NCBI GenBank assembly: GCA_026023565.1
Contig: JAPETS010000002.1
Span: forward strand, 1,426,001 to 1,477,223
Length of the DNA stretch: 51,223 bases
From: Cirrosporium novae-zelandiae
Lineage: Eukaryota
Direction of reading: 5' to 3'
Every line of letters begins with the position of its first letter. The first letter of the stretch is position 1. Positions 38,351 to 51,223 of the stretch are shown here, piece by piece. The notes beneath the pieces were generated by a model. The model searched no databases. It was given only the letters and a program-made list of their open reading frames with translations, and was not told the origin of the DNA. A program made the translations under genes and the position numbers.

Positions 38351-38610
38351 TCATGGCAAACATGGGTAACCGAACGCTTTACGTTGTGGAGGAATGGGTT
38401 CTTGTCATATAACCTTGTATCCTTGCAACATTCCGATAGACGATAATTGAACTTATAACTTGGGAATCTGTCCGAACAATATTGAGCTTGGTACAGCCAT
38501 TCCATCTTTGCACTAATTAGTATTAGAAGCTATAAGACTTGGGACTGTGTGTCAACTGACCTGGGCCGAGATTATAAGATGTCCCGTATGGTTGAATGAA
38601 AACGAGTTGT

Positions 38611-38744
38611 AAGCTTGTGATTGAGACGCTCAGGCTATGCTTTTCGATCCCATCTTGAGTGTCAGGTATATTTCGAACCCATTTGCATCATGGTCTGCAA
38701 AGAGCAGGAAAAGAACATCTTTTAATGTCTCGTCGCGGCTGAGA
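38611..38744 (-). pseudogene. 134-bp dead fragment of the Spo11-like TOPRIM exon
   Basis: 125/134 nt identical by manual alignment to 47382-47515, same orientation. Translates LSRDETLKDVLFLLFADHDANGFEIYLTLKMGSKSIA*ASQSQA (W to stop). Confidence 0.92.
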
Positions 38745-39512
38745 GAAACGATCTATCCGAGGATCACTCTTTTATCATTGGTGCAAATCCACAAATGTTC
38801 CATGAAAGTGATCAGTCGATCCATAGAAGTAGACAGGATTTGTATATGAATTCCCATCTCTTTGTTGTGTATCTAAGGTTGTGTAGTCAAGATTGTACAG
38901 TCAAGGCAACGAGGTCCTGACACACTGGACTCGAGAGATTGCTCATACCGAGCTTGTAAAGGCTTGCGGGAAGGCTTTTAGAGGTATACGGAAAGGCTAG
39001 TAGAAGGACTTAGAAAGATTTGTTGGAGACCTCGGTTCTTACACCTTGGACATGATTGAAATCTAGGCTTTCAGGTCGTCAGCTTGGCAACTAGACCTTA
39101 ACGCGAACAGCACTATTAATGTTTGAACTAAGTGTACCTTGTAACTACTTGGATTCTCAACAAGTTCATAATTCTGATGCTCTAATAAGCACGTTCAACT
39201 TAGAAAGGCGTGAGCGTTGGTCAATTTTAATCGGGCTCGACCAGAAAAGCCGAGTTTAAGAAATAAGAATCAAGATTGCCAACTAAGTCGTAGTCTAGGG
39301 ATTGTCAAGGTGTGGCTTAACGATCGTGCTATCTAAAAACAGTGTGAGGTGCAATCGAATCAATGGTCCAAGTCTGTGGTCTTATTTGTGGTCTCATTAA
39401 TTCAGTGCAGTTCATTAAGCCAACACTCTTCACATGGGCTCGCTTTGGTTTCAGCTCTTAGATCATGCGGTGTTGTTAATTGTGAGCAATGGTTCTCAAT
39501 GAAGTGTAATCA

Positions 39513-41097
39513 TCAGTCGAGTTCCTGAACAAGCCATGGGTCTTCGAGTAGCTCCTTGGCCGTCTTCCTATTTTCTGGAAGCCATTGAAGCATCTTCCTT
39601 ACGAAATTTAGAAAGAGCCGTTTATCTTCTCCTTCAAGAGAAATGACCGAGTCCTGCAACGTGACATGACTTGGAATCAGATCATTGTACATGAACCCAT
39701 CTGAATTGAGAGGTCAGCATTCACTTGTTCGTAAGTGCGGCACGTTTGTGCGACACTTTTCTTTGATAGCCTCGGGGAAGCTTACCTTTGGAGTTGAAGA
39801 AAGGTCCTCTATAATACTCGCGAGGGGTTTGGCAAAGCTTCCCCTCTGGATTTGTAACAGGATGACTCCATTTGATCCCACTTAACTGTTTTTCTCGCTC
39901 AGGGAGTATTTTCGGTGGAGGTCCTAGTAACGCAATCATCTCCGCAAGATGTGCTCGAACGCTGTAGGTTCCTTTGCTAGAACGAATATGTCTGAACAAA
40001 TCTTTGCCTTCTATCATGTTCCAAATCTATATGAGGTAAGCAAAATTCGAGTATATGATAGAAGCTGTATACCAATACACCGAAGTTCCAAATGTCTGCA
40101 CTGTAGGTCTAGCCGGTGCCTAATAGGACTTCTGGGGCATGGAAAAGAGGTGGCTGAATAGGATGTCTGTGAGGTTCCGAACAATTTCCTAATTGTGCCA
40201 TTCCAAAGTCTGCTATTTTCGGTAGGATGCGGAATGACTGAAGTCGTCCAAAATCGTTCTGTGATAAATAGATCGATCGGCCATTATTGATTTTTCGAGG
40301 CATTGGATGTGTAGCGTATCTTTGAACAAAAATTTCAATCACAGATGGGTCCTCGAATCCCGTCAGGATATTGTCCAGCTTAAAATCTAATAAAGTGAGT
40401 CTTAACCAACATTTTAACCAACAGCGACATTAAGCCTAGCTTCAACTCACCTGTGTGGATTATGTGACACTCGGAATGAAGATGGTCGAGCCCCCTCAAA
40501 ATAAATTTCAAATATACTTTGAGAACCACTGGCGGCAGTTTGCCGTTTTCCCAGCGCCGTTGAAACAGCCAGAAAGGCTCTCTCATCGGCTCATAGACGA
40601 GACATACGTGCGTAGCATCTGGCCCCGTAGCTTTGAAACTGTCGAGTAGAGTCCTCACGAACCTGAAGCCATTATGGGATGGATTTGTTCCAAGACGTCG
40701 AGTGATGTTCCGCTCGTGTTTTGCCGCATCTTCGTCGCAACCAGAGATGATCTTTAGAGCTACGTAACGGTTAGAGTTCCACCACCATCTGTAGCAAAGT
40801 TAAAGGGTACGCTTCTAGTCGGCTTAATACATACCTCCAGGTATCTCGAGCGAGCCATACCGTAGAAGTAGAACCCCATCCGACCTTGGCCACAATCCTA
40901 TATCTGCTGTTGAGGAGATCACCTGGGTTAGCTGGATAGAAATATTTAGGATCGTAGCCAGGAATCATCTCCCCTTCTATTGGGACATTAGTTGGGATGA
41001 TCGTTGGTGATTGACTTGCGGACATGGCGCCTATTGGTGTAGGCGGTCGTCGAAGAAGTTGGAGAGCACGGGTGATGAAGAACTTGGAAACCGACAT
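39513..41097 (-). pseudogene. SRPK-like (CMGC) Ser/Thr kinase with a nonsense mutation
   Basis: KVGWGSTSTVWLARD, YVALKI, HTDFKLDN, KIADFG, HAPEVLLGTG*TYSADIWNFG (conserved W position is TAG at 40109-40111), AHLAEMIALLGPPP, RKMLQWLPENRKTAKELLEDPWL. Confidence 0.85.
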
Positions 41098-43387
41098 GAT
41101 GATACGGTTGAAGTTGGTATTGCTTAAAGATATAACTTTCGGCGTAGGAGGGGAAAATTTTTGGCTGGGCGTTTCTCAACCCTAGAAATGAGGTTCTAGT
41201 TACCTAGGTACCTAGGTGCCTGGTAAAATCAGCCTCAACTCGAGAAACATGGAACCAACTTACCGCAGGTAGCCAATTCACTGGTAATCATTCTCCATCT
41301 CGGTTGGATTTATTCATTTCAATTAGATCTATCCATCTTAGGCATGTCCACCATTAGGTTGAATGACTCACAATCTCACAATCCACTGTTCATACAGAAT
41401 CTTTAGATATATCCTCGCTTCAACTTCAAGCCACAAACTCCAAATGACTCCCATGCTGATATCTTGACGAAACAATTCAAACTGATCGAAATCATTACGT
41501 TTTGGCTGATGAATTCACAGATATGGCATGGTTTGGTGAATGACTAATATCTTGATTGTTTTAGCCATCTCTACAGAATGCGAGACTATTCAGCAGTGCC
41601 AAACACCTCCCCAGAGACCAGCCAGAGACTTGAGCACATCTCGGTGAGAGTATTATTGGTACAAATGGATGCTTGGGGAATTGGATGTTGCGAGCTTAGG
41701 GGAAGCAAGGGTAAGCAAGCTTCTAGATATATAGGAACTTACTGACTTTGACTCTTCATGTATTCAGATCCTTTACCCTTGGTGTCTAAATCCAAATTTG
41801 GCCTCGAGTTCTCGCATACGATTTCTATATTACAATTGCGAAGAGTTTGGGAATTGAGGGTAATCAGCAGCAGAATGCCGCATGTCTAGGTACATGTACA
41901 ATGGAGTATGTTATCTTAGCTCTTGTGGTATGCCCAACTAGCTAGCTAGGGTATGTCATTCTAGCTAGAGGCCGGCTTCCCAACTACTATAGCTAGATAG
42001 TATTCTAGCTTTTATAGCATAGCTAGCTGGAATGTCGCTGGTAGGATAGGAAGATTAGTGAAAATCATCGTCGGAATTTTCTCCAAGACCCTAACTTATT
42101 ACCTAGGTAATTATTTACTGGCCAATCAAACCTCTGCTCCATCATGTCACCAACCATAGACCAACCAGACCAAGGATATCAATCCAGTCAATCTAATCAA
42201 CCTAATTTATTCCCTTCCCTGTCTAATCTCTCTTCCCAATTCTTCGAACCACAACCTTATGGCTACTATAAATGGTTAGAAGGCCGTCCTGTTAGATGGT
42301 AAAATATGGATATCTTCGATGTCAGGGTCGGCTATGTCCTTGGATCAAGGACGCGATATGGAATGCTAGAGAGAAGGATGCTGAGATGAAACACAATGAC
42401 GCTGATGAGATATCGTGGTTATCTCATATGTTCTCATGCTCTTCATCGAGATTGACGTTCAGCCTACTTGTCGCAACATTCGATTCATCCCATATCAAAT
42501 TGTCCTTTCACTAATCCCTTGCCTATTATCCATCAATCTAACAAAACCTCCCTATACATATACATTGTAGCTGGAAGACTGTTCATTATCCCATTGTCCA
42601 TCTTTGGGTCTATCGTTTCTGATTGGCCATATTCCCAAAGGTTCCTGTCTGAAAGGTCACCATCTAGTCATTGTCTGGCTTCTCGGCGTTGGGTCGGTTG
42701 CCTTGTAGTCGCTCGTTATTAATGGTGTCAAGTGGAAACCACTCTCTCCATCGAATAAGACGTCTGCCATCCACATTTATTGGTGTCATAGATATGTAAG
42801 ATATGCTCACTCGGCAATTGAAGAGTAGGGTTTGTAGTGAAATATCAGAAGCTGAGGCTGAATATTCCGAAGGACATCACAACGATAGGCAATCAATACT
42901 ACTTTGTATCTAAGAATCAAAATATTGCCCTCCCCGTAAAGGAAGGCGGAGTGACAGGTCATCACATTGCTGAAGATAGGTGAGATAATCCTGAACTTGC
43001 AGACGATAGCGTTTCGGTTCAACGAAGGTGAGGGAAAAGTGGGATGCAGCTGCGGCGGCAGACATGATTGCAGAGAAAAGAAGGTTGTTGGATGGCAGAA
43101 GAAGACCAGAGTCCTACGTAATAGTTTATCTAGTTGCAATCCGCCTATAGATCTCCTTGCAAAGCTCCATTACCTTTACTAAGCAAAGTAAGAGGTTTTA
43201 TCAAAGACTTCCTTATTCCTCATTGGCAGGCAGATCAAAGAAGTCACATTTTGAACAGAGTTGATGGAGATTGATACCACAACTGTTTCCCTGATGGAAG
43301 GCATTATCAAACTAATCCTTCTCTATTACTCTGAAAAGGCCCCTTTAGGTCTTCTTTCTCTACTCAGGTCAGATATGAACTATGATA

Positions 43388-44820
43388 CTAGGCGTCTACG
43401 TTCACCATTTTCAACACTACCAGAATCAATAGTACATTCGCAGGAAACATGGTCCAAACGAGGCGTTTCTGTTGATCTCGGATCACCTCATCTGCGAGCT
43501 GCACTCGACGATCGAGTTCGCTGAGATTGGCTCGGGGAGGAGGAAGGCGTATTACTTTAGATGAGGGAATTGGAATTTTCATGGAAATCGCTATCATCGT
43601 TGCCTTCAATCGAATCTTCATCTTCAGTAGTCGGAGACTGTAGCCAAGAAGAGCCGTAACTTTGGGGAATATTCCAAGATATGAGTTAACTAAGTATATT
43701 TATCGGTCTTGTCCAAGGTTCTATACAGCTGTATCCCGACGCCATGTTCAACCAGTTTGAGCTATTTCCAGAGTATGTCGGAATATTCGATTTTCAGCTG
43801 TCGCATGCGGAGCTTGGGCATTTTGGCGCCAATGGTATGGCCATTGATAGGAGTAATACGCGAAGCGTATGTCCATCGCCAGAGAAATTTCTCCTAGATT
43901 TTTGAGATACGTTTCCCTTGGATAAGTGCATTAGGTTCCTTCGTAATGAGGTTAGGCACTGCGGAGTAGGTCAATATCAGTTCTGCTGCCGGATACTTGG
44001 CCTCTAACTCAAGGGATTGTCGAACGTCAGTTGATCTTTGGACGTGGTAGCAGCGATATCGTCAGACCAATTAGACCTTGGACAATTAAGGTCTGGTTGG
44101 CTTATCAAAAAGCTCCGTCTGGTCGGTCTAAGGTCTATAGACCGTTCATGGTAGACCGTCTATTTGATCCAGTCTATTGCCAACACTGGTTGTCTTCACG
44201 GGCAAGATATGTGTGGATGATAATATAGTCAGAGAATGTCACATATTTAGCAGGCTTAGAAAAAATATGCCTCTTATTTTGTCTTTCTTTTTTGACTGTA
44301 ACGGGTGCTATTCTAGGCGATTGTAGTTTTAGTGGTAGTGGGGATGGCTTGTGTAAAGCCTGTTTTGGGGGACGAAGAGGTAGCAAGTCTATTATAGAAG
44401 CTGGACTGCTGAGTGAATGATGCTGAGTGAATACATAGTCTTTAGTTTCTAGCAAGCTACCCGTCTAGACATCATTGACAAACGTCTATCAGGCCAGAGA
44501 TTATTCCTTATCCTGGTATTCAGAAATTGGAGATGAAGGGATGGACCGTTGAGAACTGGGAGATTTCGGGTTTGGGGATCTTCTTCATTCCCCATCCATC
44601 TTGTCATTCACTGCCATCGGGTGAAGTCCGGTCAATAAAGCTCGGAGGTTACTATAGTATTTCGTTCCTGAATCCTTTTTATCTCTGATAGACTTAACCC
44701 TGGAACGTTGGTGCTTGCATGGTCTTCCAGGGTATCTAAAGGGTATAATGGAGCGACGACAGGTTCAAGGATTCGGCGACAGCCCCATGAAAAGTTTGAG
44801 TGTGAATATGGACAGGGCAT
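43388..44820 (-). pseudogene. Heavily degraded coding relic(s) of unknown family
   Basis: A protein-like frame around 43690-44040 (RSTDVRQSLELEAKYPAAELILTYSAVPNLITKE...RISKI*EKFLWRWTY...ILWK*LKLVEHG) carries in-frame TAGs at 43894-43896 and 43762-43764. Upstream is an MPCPYSHSNFSWGC start-like segment. Boundaries approximate. Confidence 0.3.
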
Positions 44821-46427
44821 TGATGTTGGAAGGCTTTGGATTATTCGACATCTAAATACAACAGTTATTTAGTATAAATGATGCAACGTACCGATTTCAT
44901 TTCTTTGAGATCTTGAATAGGGAGGATACGCTCACAGTGCTCATCTTAAAGTGTGACAATGTGACAATGTGAAATGTATTTGTAGGTATTGGAGTTAGAA
45001 AAGACCTGCAGCAAGTTCATTCTGTTGCGAATAGTTATAATCATCGGATGGCATAAATACTAAGCTTGCTTCGACTATTAAGAGCGATAATGATTGGCCA
45101 TAGTGGTATCAGCGTTCTTCTCTGATGATTTGGGTTGTAACTCATGTTAGGAAAGGGACTGGCCAAAGATTTGGCTGTAACCTTGTACCAACACACTCTT
45201 ATCAGATCATGATTTTCCCTATTTCAGTTGTAATATTCACCAACCGTGAAGAAGGATGGGTCCTACTTGTTAACAAATCAAGATCCTGAAGAGAAGGATG
45301 TAGAGAGTAGAGGAACGTACTGAACGGTCCAGTTACAAGCTCACATGCCACATCGAAGCTCCCCTCAACATGTGTTTAAGCCTGGTCTAGCGATTAGAGC
45401 TTCTTGAGGGGATGAGAGAAATACCTGGTTTTGCACTCACAGCGGACTTGGTCTCCAGCATTTCTTCCAATAAACTCTGATGCAGGAGAACGTTATAAAT
45501 CATCACTGATCAATCCCATATCCTAAGACTCTAAAATCGACTGCTACCCAACTGGAGCACCCCAACCCAACCAAAACACTTTGACCTGACTTTTAGTGAT
45601 CTCCAAGATGCAATATCTAGTACCCGCCTTTGCGAAAGACTTCATTTGACAGTGTCCCTTGGCATGCTGATCCGAGAGCCTACCAAACATGGCCTAAGAC
45701 TGGGATCTTCACTTCAACCAGGCATCTCGAACAGCACAGGTTACCGACCTTCGCCGGTGGTATTCTGGTTTAAGCATCTTGAGTTGCGAGGTCCAAAAGT
45801 CTAGGGAGCAGGTTGACGAAGGGATGCAATTGATATGTATTGCTTTGTGAAGTTCTCTTCTAGTTCAGATGCTTTCCATAGAAGTGAAGGATATTCCACT
45901 CCAATGCCTTGGCACTCCTTGGGTCATGTTCTTCGTATAACTTAATATAATGTGTCCTCATGCTATACTAAAGTTGTTTGCTGTCAGTCTAAGAAGAGAA
46001 TCCCTGCTTGCAAAAGCTATATCAACCACATGCAACTACTCAGCTTTTCAAACGAGCCTTCTCGAGTCGCTGGCCAGATTCATCTCATACTGTCTTCTAG
46101 GACAGTCTGGATGGACGGTAGATGGCTCACAGCCTAAAGTTTGCCGCGTGCGAGTCGATCAATCTCAATTGCTCTCGGAGATCTGGACTCGAGAGGTATG
46201 GAGACAAGTAGTTGGGATGGAACCCAAACACCCATTATAGAGACGAAGACAGCATTATTTAAAATAACGCTCAGCGGATAAACTCTATATTAGACTTGGA
46301 TGAAGTCTTTTTATCGAGGAATAAATATTATGTGTCGATCCTTGCTGAGCTCAGAGCTCAGTGAAGATCCTTATCCAGAATAGAATGTGTGGTGCACGGA
46401 CCGCCTGGCAATTATAACAATTTGGAT

Positions 46428-46664
46428 GAAGTTCTTACTTTTATTACAGAAGTTCCATATAATTGCGGAAGTTCCGTCTTAGTCTATACCGGCCACCTAT
46501 GCAATGTTTTTTGGAATTCCAAATAAGAAGAAACTTTGATAAAAATATCGCGAGAAATTTATAATACTCAAAGATCATGAAGTTTTGAGTTTTTGAATTA
46601 TTTTAACGATTTCTATAATGGAACTTTCACAAAACACGGAACTTCCATACTGGAACTTCCGTGT
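46428..46664. repeat. Cluster of GGAASTTCC-like quasi-palindromes with a 31-bp hairpin
   Basis: GAAGTTC at 46428, 46449 and within CGGAAGTTCCG at 46466; palindrome TTTGGAATTCCAAA 46510-46523; GGAACTT(T)C at 46620, 46638, 46652; hairpin ACACGGAACTTCCA-TAC-TGGAACTTCCGTGT 46634-46664. Confidence 0.75.
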
Positions 46665-46698
46665 AAAAACTTTTATCTGTAAGCTAGGTTATATTTTA

Positions 46699-48344
46699 TC
46701 AAATAATATTCCTATATATATGTCGAGCTCTTTTTATGGCTTGAAGCCGTTCTCTAACTTCTTCTACAGTCGCTATTGCTCCTGACATCATCGAGGGATC
46801 GACTTCCTCAGATATCACGGGTGGATCGGGAATTGCAGCCACATTTAGGAGAGCATTCTGCCGGGGGGTTACATGAGCCATTGGTGTATTTTCCATTGTC
46901 ACCACGCTTGACAAAGCATCCATCGCCTCCTGCTGCGAGTAGGTCACGATCTCCGGCATGCTATTCGTCATGGGGACAGCAATCAGCTGTGAGATGCTAT
47001 GTACGAAGAATTGCTCAACGCCGAATTGTCTATGAGCCCAAGTGAGGGCGGCGAGTCCATATGCCTGGTCTGGTCAGCCCTATCCACAACTCCATCATTG
47101 GAATCTAGGAATATTAAGCCTGTGATAACTTACACCATACTCAGTGCTAATCATTGTCTCGACTTCCAGTGCCAATTTTTCTTCGTTCTGGAGTAACCCA
47201 TCTGCTCTGATCCGTCGTAACACTTGCAACCCTTTTGGAAAGATCCGGCAGCTTTGAGAATTGCTCGCATATTTTCGAAACTTTCGAATCGTTGCTACTG
47301 GGTCTGTGCCTTCTGGGGCCATTCGAGTGATTGAGCTTTCGATATCACCCATCGTTGGCCCAGCGTATGTGAGCCGCCCACAAGCTTGTGATTGAGACGC
47401 CCAGGCCATGTTTTTCGATCCCATCTTGAGTGTAAGGTATATTTCGAACCCGTTGGCATCATGGTCTGCGAAGAACAGGAAAGGAACATCTTTTAATGTC
47501 TCGTCGCGGCTGAGACAAACAAGAAACTCTCGTGTGGCCTGGTCAGGGTATCCTGCAGTCTGCACATCTTGTCAGAACCATTTAGGAGGGTCATTTAATC
47601 AGAGAGCCTTACCATGACGAAGATGATATCTCGTAAACAGTTCTCCCCCTTTGCCACTCTATCCAATCCTTGCTTGATATTTCTGTGCTCTACTACAACC
47701 ACCGCAACAATTGGGCCGCGATAGCCCTTGGCCCGCCGCAAAGTGGTGCTTATGGTCGGCATTGGTATTTGCCGTCTTTCTGTTAGGGTCTCCACCCTTG
47801 TCCCACCCCCCTCCCTTGCCGAGTATTCAAATACATTACTAATGGTCATTGCCGCGAGTTTCCATCCTGATGGGATGGACACTTCCCCTTGACTTTCTGG
47901 TATGACACCTAGGGAAATCGGGTGAACGCCTATGGTGATTGCAATATCCTTGAGAAGCTTATTTGCTCTCTCTGCAGTTAACCCAGGCCGACGGAGCTCG
48001 TATCCGACCTTTCTTTCATTCTCCTGTGCATGATATGCCAGGCGAGATAACATCTGCCGTATGACGACAATTATTGTCGCCCAGTACTGCTTTTGCTGCT
48101 GCGTTTCTGTTCCTTTTTTACAGCCTTTTTTATATCTTGCCCAGATATGCTTTTCACCGTTCTCATCATCATTGTTTGCTTCATCCACTTTCACTAATCT
48201 AACCATTCCCTTTGCCTTACTATCAGATATTTCAATCATGGCAGACCCTTCTCGATCCAGCTCTGTTAACAACCTATGTAGTTTGTTCACGAGAGTGGTA
48301 GATTGGGTTTTGGTCCTCCAATCAATTGAAATTCTTGCCGACAT
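46699..48344 (-). CDS. Divergent Spo11/topoisomerase VI subunit A-like protein (~507 aa, 3 exons)
   Basis: Exons 48344-47613, 47559-47134, 47064-46699 with canonical introns (GTAAGG..TCTGAC..CAG; GTAAGT..GCTGAC..CAG). Winged-helix-like ERKVGY...ANKLLKDIAITIGVHPISLGVIPESQGEV (cf. RDIYY...IDDIA.TLGV.R..L.V....KGLV). TOPRIM VVVVEH (cf. VLVVEK), TAGYPDQATREFL (cf. GKGYPD.ATR.FL), FFADHDANGFEIYLTLKMGS (cf. DxDPxG.EI..TYKYGS). Confidence 0.85.
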
Positions 48345-48806
48345 TGTAAAGATAGAAAGTCACAGAAAGTAATAAGCTGAGAGATGAAATCTGAAGAGTT
48401 ATTTGAAGAATTATATAGTTGTAAAGGAGATGAACACAGCCAGAAAACGTTGCGTAGAGCATTTGGGGGATTACGTAAATCTAATGAGGGAAGCCCAACA
48501 AAATCTTGTAGGGGATGGATCGCTATGAAGGCAGCAAGGCCTACTGTTTTAAGGTTTCGGAAGGTTCGCCAGGTCGCTTCAGCCGTTGGGTGGCAAAAAT
48601 ATCCCTTTTCCATTAGAATTATTAATATCTACTGCAACGGGAAGGAGCAAACCAAAGACGGAAGCGACAAAGGCAAGTAGAGTAGTAAAATAGGCCCAGA
48701 GGGCATGTAGTAATAACAAATCAATCAAGTTCACTGCGAGAAAATTGTACCAGTATCTTGCTAACTTTTTTTCTTCTATTAATCTTTGCATACCCCTATC
48801 CTCAAA

Positions 48807-50445
48807 ATGGCAGCTAAGCGTACACTTGATTCACAATTCACCGACCAAGCTGCCAAACGGCAGAACGTAGGAGATTCTTTCAATATATACACTGCGGTGT
48901 CCGAGGACCAGCAGCTAACCGACCTCTGGAACCTATGGGCCGCACCAAGAGACCCCTTGACCTGGAAATGGTGGAAAAGGTGGTATGATGTAAGAGAACC
49001 GTCGGAAGAGCTCCTACAAAGATGTCGAGAAGCTAGTACAAAGCCATCTACTAACCTGTATGTGACCCCGGAGAGTTTCTTGCTGGCGAATGCTGATCTG
49101 GAATAGTATTTCATTCGACACTGCCTGTGCCTCTGCTATTGCGTTTCGAGATATACGCACCGAAGCAATGACCGCCATCCCACCCCAACATGCCCTAGTC
49201 ATCGAAGCGGCGAAACGAGAATTGGATTACCTGACCTACATTTCTTGCCGAATCCCCAAGAAGATGATACTAGTACCAGATTTTCATGGAAGTGTATATA
49301 CCATCCTAAGGCTCTTGGAAACGGAAAAACAAAAAAAAACTGGAAATCGAAAAATTATGGCTATGGAAAGAGTACACAATTCTGAGTTATATAACGATTT
49401 CAACAAGGACGAGATGATAAATGTAGTGAACTCATGCCGAATCTTACCGGAAAACGAAAACCAAGTCTGCTGGAACGATGTTGTAGGTATGGAAGAAGTC
49501 AAGATGCAACTCACATCCTTTGCGTCCAAAATCACGTTTCAGCATTTGACAAAAAATTTCCGTGGGGGGAGGACAGGCCATCTCCTCTTTGGCCCCCAAG
49601 GCACTGGAAAGACCACCGTAGTTAAAAGTTTTGCTGCCCATCAGAAACTGTTGCTATACGACATCCCCATTAGCAAAATACTTTCGAAGTACGTCGGCGA
49701 CGGTGAAAAATTCATCACAACCATGTTTGACGTGATAAAACAAAATTCCCCTGCGGTATTACTGATAGATGAGATCGATGGTCTTTTCCGAGAACCAAAT
49801 GACACTTCCGTGGCAAGCCTCCACACTATTCAGGCGGAACTTAAAAAAAAATGGAGCGACATCATGGCCACCAATGAGAAGATCCTGATTATAGGAGCCA
49901 CAAATAAACCATGGAAGATTGATCTAGACGGCTTTGGCAGAAGGTTCTCCTCAAAGTCGTACGTTGGCCTTCCTACGCGCCAGGGCCTGATGGAGATATT
50001 TTCGCGTGTACTTATAAACATCAACCATCGGTTAACACCATCTATGGTGAAGTGCTTAGCTCACCTCGCCCACCAAAAGGGTTTAACCGGAGCCGACGTA
50101 GAAATGCTGGTGGAAAAAGGAATTGAAGTTGCAATCGGTCGTATAACGTCAAGCCACTTCTTCAAGCGTGTAAGTGCCACCTCCTTGACCCTACTACCTG
50201 ATGACTAACAACACTGGTTACAGGTTGAGTGGAAAGAAATGAGCTACTGGGCTCCATGTTCAGAGTCCGACCCAGATGGTGAGAAGAGAGACTATGAAAG
50301 TTTCTCCGACATTAAAGCCTTGTGTTACACAGCGGTAAGGCTCCCGGAGCTGTATAAGGTTGTCAAGGAGACAACGCCGTCCGTAAATAAGGATATGCTG
50401 AAGAAACACGAGGAATGGGCTATGACACAAGGGATTAAGATATAG
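48807..50445 (+). CDS. Divergent Vps4-like AAA+ ATPase (~511 aa, 3 exons), no recognisable MIT domain
   Basis: Exons 48807-49057, 49107-50169, 50224-50445. VCWNDVVGMEEVK, Walker A GPQGTGKT, pore loop SKYVGDGEK, Walker B LLIDEID, IGATNKPW..GRRF, GLTGADV. Vps4_C-like tail HFFKR|V...WAPCSESDPDG...TTPSVNKDMLKKHEEWAMTQG. Confidence 0.88.
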
Positions 50446-51100: not shown

Positions 51101-51223
51101 TAGGGTTAGGGTTAGGGTTAGGGTTAGGGTTAGGGTTAGGGTTAGGGTTAGGGTTAGGGTTAGGGTTAGGGTTAGGGTTAGGGTTAGGGTTAGGGTTAGG
51201 GTTAGGGTTAGGGTTAGGGTTAG
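51100..51223 (+). repeat. Telomere (TTAGGG)n, chromosome right end
   Basis: 20 perfect TTAGGG units plus TTAG to the end of the window; G-rich strand runs 5'->3' toward the end. Confidence 0.99.

Follow-up and report, generated by a model that had tools for sequence, protein, structure and literature searches.

Does the fungus Cirrosporium novae-zelandiae (Pezizomycotina, class Xylobotryomycetes) carry a DNA-breaking enzyme of the Spo11/Top6A kind that is something other than its meiotic Spo11? The question was raised by a gene at positions 46699-48344 (minus strand) of a 51,223-nucleotide stretch of its genome, the window analyzed here (assembly GCA_026023565.1, contig JAPETS010000002.1, positions 1,426,001 to 1,477,223 of the forward strand). 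In this gene an original prediction, made from the letters alone, had seen a non-canonical Spo11/Top6A homologue with its putative catalytic residues in place. Our answer is that the gene product probably belongs to a Spo11/Top6A-like family of its own, one that evolves fast, and that it would act as a DNA-cleaving transesterase, as a non-meiotic paralogue of Spo11 and with an ATPase as its partner.

Gene model, fold and catalytic residues

The gene was composed of three exons encoding a product of 507 amino acids (aa). Its spliced translation, made by coordinates, agreed letter for letter with the 507-aa NCBI protein model P0004, titled 'MAG: hypothetical protein M1834_003124 [Cirrosporium novae-zelandiae]' (MAG, metagenome-assembled genome). 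The parts of the gene were as follows:

47613..48344, minus strand: exon 1, residues 1-244, with the N-terminal region, a 5Y-CAP-like domain (R111, Y115) and the first Toprim strand (E219-H220), from the translation and the hhalign register
47560..47612, minus strand: intron 1, 53 nt, GTAAGG..GTGCAG, phase 0, between M244 and T245, in agreement with the NCBI model
47134..47559, minus strand: exon 2, residues 245-386, the Toprim core with TAGYPD, D276-H277-D278 and KMGS, matched by PF21180 at E 5.1e-13 with this exon alone
47065..47133, minus strand: intron 2, 69 nt, GTAAGT..GACCAG, with GT..AG borders
46699..47064, minus strand: exon 3, residues 387-507 and the stop codon, holding the final helices of the core, then a disordered linker and an amphipathic helix at the C-terminus (486-506)
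48000..48002, minus strand: codon of Tyr115 (motif ERKVGY), aligned to the catalytic Tyr of Spo11/Top6A (hhalign, translation)
47688..47690, minus strand: codon of Glu219 (motif VVVVEH), the Toprim Glu, followed by the family-specific His220 (hhalign, translation)
47458..47466, minus strand: codons of D276-H277-D278, the DxD metal-binding motif (in ADHD; hhalign, translation)

The motifs quoted in the original prediction (ERKVGY, VVVVEH, ADHD, and TAGYPD immediately 3' of intron 1) were all found at the places given for them when the translation was checked. A C-terminal extension was likewise present, although it was shorter than the ~120 aa first estimated: the structure model and the hhalign alignment left a tail of ~87 aa (421-507) past the Spo11 core, disordered from 440 to 483 and ending in the helix at 486-506.

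Homology to Spo11 and Top6A was seen at the levels of sequence, profile and predicted fold. The Pfam family PF21180 (TOP6A-Spo11_Toprim) matched P0004 with an E-value of 1.8e-14 and 54.5 bits against a cut-off of 24.1, and a phmmer search of PDB sequences returned only the Top6A proteins of S. shibatae and M. jannaschii (E 1.6e-5 and 2.5e-5). In hhalign, the 85-row family profile and a profile built from 30 canonical fungal Spo11 proteins could be aligned over 338 columns (probability 99.8, E 5e-28). The AlphaFold2 model of P0004, built from an alignment of 85 relatives, had a mean predicted local distance difference test (pLDDT) score of 86.9 and a predicted template modelling (pTM) score of 0.81, with disorder limited to residues 420-424 and 440-483. 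All ten of the best Foldseek matches to this model were Top6A or yeast Spo11 from the core complex (top E 8e-16).

In VIA-align the closest structure was M. mazei Top6A (9o0g_A; Z 29.8, root mean square deviation 3.1 Å, 340 of 359 residues), with residues 12-415 of the model lying on Top6A 10-368, the N-terminal part included; yeast Spo11 followed at Z 22.8. The superposition proposed earlier thus gave a match to the whole of Top6A, one of residue ranges and not of side chains. The next, unrelated families, a C. glutamicum nuclease and JetD, stood at Z ~13 (JetD 12.9-13.0) and matched the Toprim part only. The Pfam Toprim match, the profile-profile alignment and the fold match all agreed, and P0004 is, on its predicted structure, a full-length Spo11/Top6A homologue in which both domains have the Top6A fold.

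The hhalign alignment placed the putative catalytic residues in register. Numbered after the canonical Spo11 P0132, R111 was aligned to R87 (at least 90% in the canonical set), Y115 to Y91, the tyrosine of RDIYY, E219 to E178, and D276/D278 to D234/D236, with the last four positions invariant in the canonical set. These residues were also near-invariant in the family alignment, counted over the rows covering each column: R111 was kept in 59 of 62 rows, Y115 in 60 of 62, E219 in 78 of 79, and D276 and D278 each in 58 of 61. The placement of the Tyr, the Toprim Glu and the DxD motif given in the original prediction was therefore borne out. The His that follows the Toprim Glu, H220, was found in 77 of 79 rows.

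Family extent, phylogeny and origin

When exon 1 or the full protein was used as query in a word-based search for homologues, P0004 itself was the only match. An exhaustive HMMER search of 1.84 billion cluster representatives returned 205 matches at E<=1e-3, 95 at 1e-10 and 23 at 1e-30, of which the best 150 of the 205 were examined. Together with six cluster members these made 156 sequences, and in 155 of them the family hidden Markov model (HMM) outscored the canonical Spo11 HMM by at least 20 bits. The sole exception was P0132, a canonical SPO11 and the only non-family protein among the best 150 matches.

Twenty-nine family clusters were looked up; 18 were named, and all 18 belonged to Pezizomycotina. 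Most of the named members were lichen-formers (Teloschistes, Variospora, Pyrenodesmia, Caloplaca, Gyalolechia, Ramalina, Bacidia, Pyrenula) or black yeasts (Capronia, Lithohypha), and Phaeomoniella and Sarea made up the rest; the Phaeomoniella member was annotated 'putative meiosis-specific topoisomerase spo11'. Judged by its named members, the family is confined to Pezizomycotina. Its signature consisted of E-H-R/K-N, T-[SAG]-G and D-H-D in place of the near-invariant canonical motifs. The PF21180-type Toprim profile was matched by 33 of the 38 family members scanned, and the other five, which were incomplete or mis-modelled, matched no family. None of the 38 passed the TP6A_N cut-off (P0010 reached 16.9 bits against 26); among 39 proteins scanned, only the canonical P0132 passed.

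Several genomes held more than one copy. Sarea resinae and Pyrenula ochraceoflavens each had two members, and at least two distinct loci were found in each of three metagenome assemblies. The metagenome scan, which used family motifs from a 12-row alignment, gave 15 loci (L001-L015), of which 12 belonged to the family and three (L013-L015) were canonical Spo11. These three carried D-H-D-P-x-G, like the family DHD, and were caught by the family motif. Between loci L001 and L004 the ratio of nonsynonymous to synonymous substitution rates (dN/dS) of the nuclease gene was 0.26 (229 codons, dS 0.41), which indicates purifying selection. The literature search brought up no paper on a second fungal Spo11-like lineage. 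The family appears to be previously undescribed and, on these sequence comparisons, distinct from ordinary SPO11.

A search for canonical fungal SPO11 gave 595 matches at E<=1e-10. The best 120 of these all had both TP6A_N and Toprim; Eurotiomycetes were among them, as were lichen MAGs from the same series of sequencing. In a maximum-likelihood tree ('quick' method; 47 rows, 394 columns), all 22 family rows fell into one clade, which had a Shimodaira-Hasegawa-like approximate likelihood ratio test (SH-aLRT) value of 100 and a stem 2.27 changes per site long. Apart from it stood the 24 canonical rows, Eurotiomycetes and lichen MAGs included, which followed the species tree, and the Eurotiomycete family members were not placed beside Eurotiomycete SPO11.

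By this 'quick' tree P0004 did not group as an ordinary SPO11 orthologue, the outcome that would have spoken against the original prediction. P0004 also failed a test for the canonical motifs (E-K, G-K-G-Y-P-D, D-x-D-P-x-G, K-A-E-I-E), and the single copy per genome expected of canonical SPO11 was not seen at the level of the family. The separate clade and the two copies in some genomes point to a paralogue, so that a paralogous lineage seems much more likely than a fast-evolving orthologue. Passages of the preprint by Brinkmeier et al. assign only SPO11-1 to opisthokonts. PMC11302465 contained no occurrence of fungi, fungal, Ascomycota or intron, and the SPO11 passages of PMC6652019 deal with an alga.

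As to origin, the canonical fungal Spo11 P0132 scored 48.4 bits against 26-27 bits for archaeal Top6A (pairwise BLASTP E 6e-16 for P0132). The family motif was also sought in 185,579 prokaryote species genomes, one for each species, and no true relative was found. The single match, L016, was rejected as spurious, since it ran antisense inside an open reading frame (ORF) of 715 aa, which we take, naming it by eye, to be a Tex-like transcription accessory protein. Descent from a eukaryotic SPO11 is thus favoured indirectly over transfer from a prokaryote.

The original prediction had drawn the same origin from the intron before TAGYPD, placed, in its view, where eukaryotic SPO11 genes have one. 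The M244/T245 intron was shared with L012 and probably with L011; it was absent in L001, L003 and L004 and in L005, L008 and L009. It therefore varies within the family and is not a fixed family character. The canonical loci L013-L015, from an AT-rich eukaryote, were intron-less, and the literature search, PMC8430568 included, yielded nothing usable on SPO11 intron positions.

The neighbouring ATPase gene and the chromosome end

Beside the nuclease gene, and transcribed away from it, lay the gene of the candidate partner:

48345..48806, no strand: 462-bp intergenic region between the divergently transcribed nuclease and ATPase genes, by coordinates; a promoter role is presumed
48807..50445, plus strand: Vps4-like AAA+ ATPase gene, 511 aa, exons 48807-49057, 49107-50169 and 50224-50445, with PF00004, Vps4_C, GT..AG introns and an open spliced frame

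The ATPase matched PF00004 (E 5e-26, 92.1 bits) and Vps4_C, PF09336 (E 1.8e-9, 37.9 bits against a cut-off of 21.3). Walker A (GPQGTGKT) and Walker B (LLIDEID) were intact by inspection, and a YVG pore loop and Vps4-type RRF arginines were present. No MIT domain was found, and at E<=0.1 neither exon 1 nor the N-terminal portion of exon 2 matched any Pfam family. The AAA and Vps4_C domains made it an AAA+ protein of the Vps4-like (meiotic-clade) type, without the MIT domain that true Vps4 carries at its N-terminus.

Related genes were found near the nuclease gene at other loci. At 0.8-1.1 kb downstream of it, an AAA gene was convergent in L001 and L010 and tandem in L004; in L012 one lay 6.7 kb downstream, behind a chromodomain ORF. 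Four loci (L002, L003, L005, L011) were too short to be counted for linkage. The ATPases of L012, L001 and L004 had a non-AAA N-domain in common (36% identity over 276 aa between L012 and L004). When an HMM of this N-domain was run on 1002 ORFs of the window, the exon-1 ORF of the window ATPase ranked first (E 0.006). Between L001 and L004 the ATPase gene had a dN/dS of 0.18 (425 codons, dS 0.57), again indicating purifying selection. With a chance level of about 1% per adjacent gene for a PF00004 neighbour, which is our own rough arithmetic, the presence of this ATPase subfamily near family members in three divergent lineages is more than expected, in a small sample. A structure model of the L004 ATPase from a 4-row alignment (pLDDT 44.4) was too poor for a fold search.

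The L001 and L004 loci, otherwise 80-85% identical, carried the ATPase gene in opposite directions (L001 12603-13952, minus; L004 12413-13798, plus), so that it was inverted in one of the two. These loci also had in common a 1-kb element (L001 1-1032, L004 7655-8686) that was 99.5% identical, against ~85% for the genes, and whose distance from the gene differed between the two loci; this element is probably a repeat of young age.

A further observation concerned the end of the nuclease. In residues 484-507 of P0004, and in many full-length members, a short end helix, first acidic and then hydrophobic, was seen by eye after a variable low-complexity linker. In P0004 this helix can be likened to the MIT-interacting motif of ESCRT-III proteins, and the likeness is noteworthy because the neighbouring gene is Vps4-like. 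The MIM1 consensus was absent from the passages of PMC11218997.

The two genes were the last of the window, the ATPase gene at the very end and the nuclease gene before it, ~2.8 kb from a telomeric array. This array and a second copy of part of the nuclease gene were placed as follows:

51101..51223, plus strand: telomeric array (TTAGGG)n, ~20 repeats, running to the window end, from the sequence
38594..38752, minus strand: pseudogene fragment of the Toprim exon (residues 257-309) with an internal stop, 93% nucleotide identity over 139 nt, from the window repeat search

The window ended in TTAGGG repeats and thus reached the end of a chromosome. The Capronia coronata member P0027 (locus tag A1O1_00005) may also lie near a chromosome end, as its low locus-tag number suggests a place near the start of a 4.6-Mb scaffold.

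The Toprim-exon fragment lay 8.8 kb from the nuclease gene, and a contig of the source data set broke at the fragment. In the probable source data set, one full-length nuclease copy at >=80% identity and one fragment were found. Three other contigs there carried 80-130-nt pieces 82-87% similar to 48625-48752, 48942-49024 and 49194-49308. The matched stretches fall in the intergenic region and in the 5' part of the ATPase gene, and the pieces may be what is left of additional copies of the module. The window repeat search showed no terminal inverted or direct repeats around the nuclease-ATPase pair.

Further features of the region were noted. From 41200 to 46700 there was a gene-poor subtelomeric stretch of ~5.5 kb without a recognisable ORF. 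Positions 44064-44188 had a summed contig depth of ~8181, against ~390 around them, with many partly matching contigs, and seem to be part of some high-copy repeat. On the minus strand, a protein-kinase fragment at 40383-40799 was matched weakly by PF00069 (28 bits, under the cut-off). Neighbours of the nuclease gene elsewhere included a NOD-like receptor (NLR)-like ORF (NPHP3_N with ankyrin), Ulp1/C48 protease ORFs at two unrelated loci and a chromodomain ORF (L004 2286-4019; L012 8201-8788 and 11839-13137; L008 19203-20597), which are typical of accessory or transposon-rich regions.

Readings of the locus and their meaning

The reading that we hold to be probable, that of a distinct Spo11/Top6A-like transesterase with a non-meiotic role and an ATPase partner, starts from the full two-domain plan of a type IIB topoisomerase A subunit (5Y-CAP and Toprim) present in P0004. 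The Glu/DxD site would hold Mg2+, and attack on the phosphodiester by Tyr115, with Arg111 assisting, would lead to a covalent 5'-phosphotyrosyl intermediate. Cleavage would most likely take place in a dimer with hybrid active sites, by analogy with Top6A and Spo11. The paralogue would have a role other than ordinary meiotic break formation, and subtelomeric recombination, genome conflict or defence, and a selfish module are candidates for it.

The adjacent Vps4-like AAA+ ATPase is the best candidate partner. Its Walker A and B motifs, pore loop and Arg fingers are intact, and its subfamily is linked to the nuclease family in three divergent lineages; it may load, regulate or remove the nuclease, for which the C-terminal helix of the nuclease would be a plausible docking motif. 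The original prediction had added that the enzyme may have escaped normal meiotic partners; the N-terminal part of Top6A and Spo11, which in passages of Brinkmeier et al. holds the helix that interacts with the B subunit, was structurally kept in the model over the range given above. The window domain scans showed no Top6B-like GHKL gene near the nuclease gene. Strand passage by topoisomerase VI requires the B subunit, and we know of no such subunit in fungi. The passages of Brinkmeier et al. likewise give no BIN4 or RHL1 in fungi.

Several observations weigh against this reading. Of the two Pfam profiles named in the original prediction, only that of the topoisomerase VI A Toprim was matched, and TP6A_N (PF04406) gave no match to P0004 at E<=10. 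The full-length Capronia coronata member has Ser in place of the catalytic Tyr, and one fragment has Phe. The departures from canonical motifs that had been predicted all proved real in the hhalign register: EK has become EH (K179 to H220), the GKG lysine is gone (T245-A246-G247), DxDPxG reads DHDANG, and the canonical KAEIEIL (KxEIE) is without a counterpart in P0004. Canonical R118 and K128 (P0132 numbering) were altered as well. With near-invariant canonical residues altered, DNA binding or chemistry may differ, and the invariant His220 together with the loss of several basic residues suggests an altered chemistry or DNA recognition. S. shibatae Top6A, which we take to be an active topoisomerase, has T-S-A-G where GKG stands in the phmmer alignment, and the loss of that lysine need not inactivate the enzyme.

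In the tree the attachment point of the family was unsettled, with a warning of long-branch attraction to the sole outgroup. Canonical SPO11 was not demonstrated in Cirrosporium or in other family-bearing species among the 120 of 595 canonical matches seen. The ATPase linkage covers three divergent lineages only; the L006-L009 type of locus had no AAA gene within 10 kb, and the window ATPase, while collinear with the metagenome-locus ATPases at its N- and C-termini, was only weakly similar to them, its N-domain included. Nearness to a telomere was seen in this window alone, none of the 15 metagenome loci having telomere repeats. Finally, DNA cleavage by P0004, as by every family member, is a predicted activity.

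The altered residues raise the alternative that the protein is derived from Spo11 and makes no covalent Tyr-linked breaks, being instead a hydrolytic Toprim nuclease like Wadjet JetD or a non-catalytic DNA-binding or scaffold protein. Besides the lost basic residues and KxEIE and the Ser of the Capronia member, this would account for the weak JetD_C/DUF2399 matches across the family (15.5 bits against a cut-off of 22 for P0004, below the gathering score; 40.5 bits against 22 for P0023) and for the PADLOC JetD match of P0004 (E 2.4e-6). The conservation of Tyr115 and Arg111 is, however, hard to square with an unused Tyr. The Top6A match spans both domains, whereas that of JetD (Z 12.9, 170 residues) covers only the Toprim, and the S. 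shibatae enzyme likewise does without the GKG lysine. We consider this alternative unlikely.

It also seems improbable to us that the gene is only the nuclease of a selfish or mobile module (homing-like, transposon-like or a killer element) with no housekeeping role in the host. The patchy distribution, many divergent copies and long branches would suit such a module, as would the position of several loci near contig ends, the pseudogene fragment, the similar pieces on three other contigs, the accessory-type neighbours and the inversion of the ATPase gene. Against it stand the lack of terminal repeats around the pair in the window, the fact that the source data set had but one full-length copy of >=80% identity, and the lack of any linked integrase or transposase domain in scans of the window and the metagenome loci; the purifying selection on both genes fits a host gene equally.

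A bolder proposal, which we regard as doubtful, is that the two genes form a DNA-breaking machine that works apart from ordinary meiosis. Tyr-linked double-strand breaks (DSBs) would be made by the nuclease, its conserved acidic C-terminal helix would recruit the ATPase, and the ATPase would thread and strip the covalently bound nuclease or gate its dimerisation, replacing the GHKL B subunit. At chromosome ends such a machine might promote recombination in subtelomeres and diversify genes, or serve as a fungal conflict system (defence or a killer element).

A plain SPO11 orthologue, unusually fast-evolving in genomes that lack the canonical gene, would agree with the kept fold and catalytic residues, the Phaeomoniella annotation and the canonical SPO11 not demonstrated in Cirrosporium, yet it is very improbable in view of the single clade with shared derived motifs across four classes, Eurotiomycetes included, of the canonical SPO11 that other Eurotiomycetes and lichen MAGs have and that follows the species tree, of the two paralogues in Sarea and in Pyrenula and the multiple loci in three metagenome assemblies, and, as a weak point from different species, of the passages of a Lepraria/Stereocaulon study in which standard toolkits find spo11 in Lecanoromycetes.

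The reading as a paralogous transesterase sets the family beside several known systems. With canonical fungal Spo11/Rec12 (the SPO11-1 orthogroup), which is closer in sequence to P0004 than archaeal Top6A, it shares the N-terminal helix region, 5Y-CAP and Toprim, with R-x3-Y, Glu and DxD in register. It differs in its own long-stemmed clade, the missing TP6A_N match, EH, T[SAG]G, DHDxxG and the absence of KxEIE; P0004 differs further in its ~87-aa extra tail and subtelomeric place, and the family in having more than one copy in some genomes and in its linkage to a Vps4-like ATPase. Among archaeal and plant Top6A is the best structural match to P0004, that of M. mazei, including the N-terminal part that contacts the B subunit, and the GKG lysine is likewise absent from the S. 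shibatae enzyme, whereas sequence identity was only 13-20%.

The plant and protist SPO11-1, -2 and -3, as described in passages of Brinkmeier et al., provide precedent for several Spo11/Top6A paralogues in one eukaryote genome; those date to early eukaryotes and have canonical motifs, whereas this family has its own signature and, among named members, is confined to Pezizomycotina. In Wadjet JetD, OLD, Gabija and PARIS, as here, a Top6A-like Toprim nuclease is genetically coupled to an ATPase. The ATPase here is, in contrast, a classical Vps4-like AAA+ and not an SMC/ABC protein. JetD was the next structural match and gave the weak profile matches described above, whereas the present nuclease is eukaryotic and intron-bearing, is without the N-terminal domains of JetD and conserves the catalytic Tyr, which we take JetD to lack. 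Mini-A and Topo VIII are, by the description in abstracts, also stand-alone Top6A-like proteins outside canonical topoisomerase VI; the best 150 of 205 matches to P0004 were instead all family members or fungal Spo11, and the prokaryote motif scan was without a true relative.

Overall, what the original prediction saw was confirmed, and its interpretation was borne out in part. The P0004 family appears to be a subfamily in its own right within a known class of enzyme; its conserved partner gene was unexpected, and in this window its setting is subtelomeric. Fungi and animals are described, in passages of Brinkmeier et al., with a single Spo11, and a second conserved lineage with intact catalytic residues would be a potential extra DSB enzyme in some fungi. 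The family amounts to a natural experiment on the residues that Spo11 requires in order to cleave, with His for Lys after the Toprim Glu and with the GKG lysine and KxEIE gone. That a Vps4-like unfoldase is linked repeatedly points to a possible novel means to control or remove a covalently bound topoisomerase-like protein, and the position beside a telomere raises a possible link with subtelomere dynamics. Several of the carriers are culturable black yeasts, so that direct testing would be feasible.

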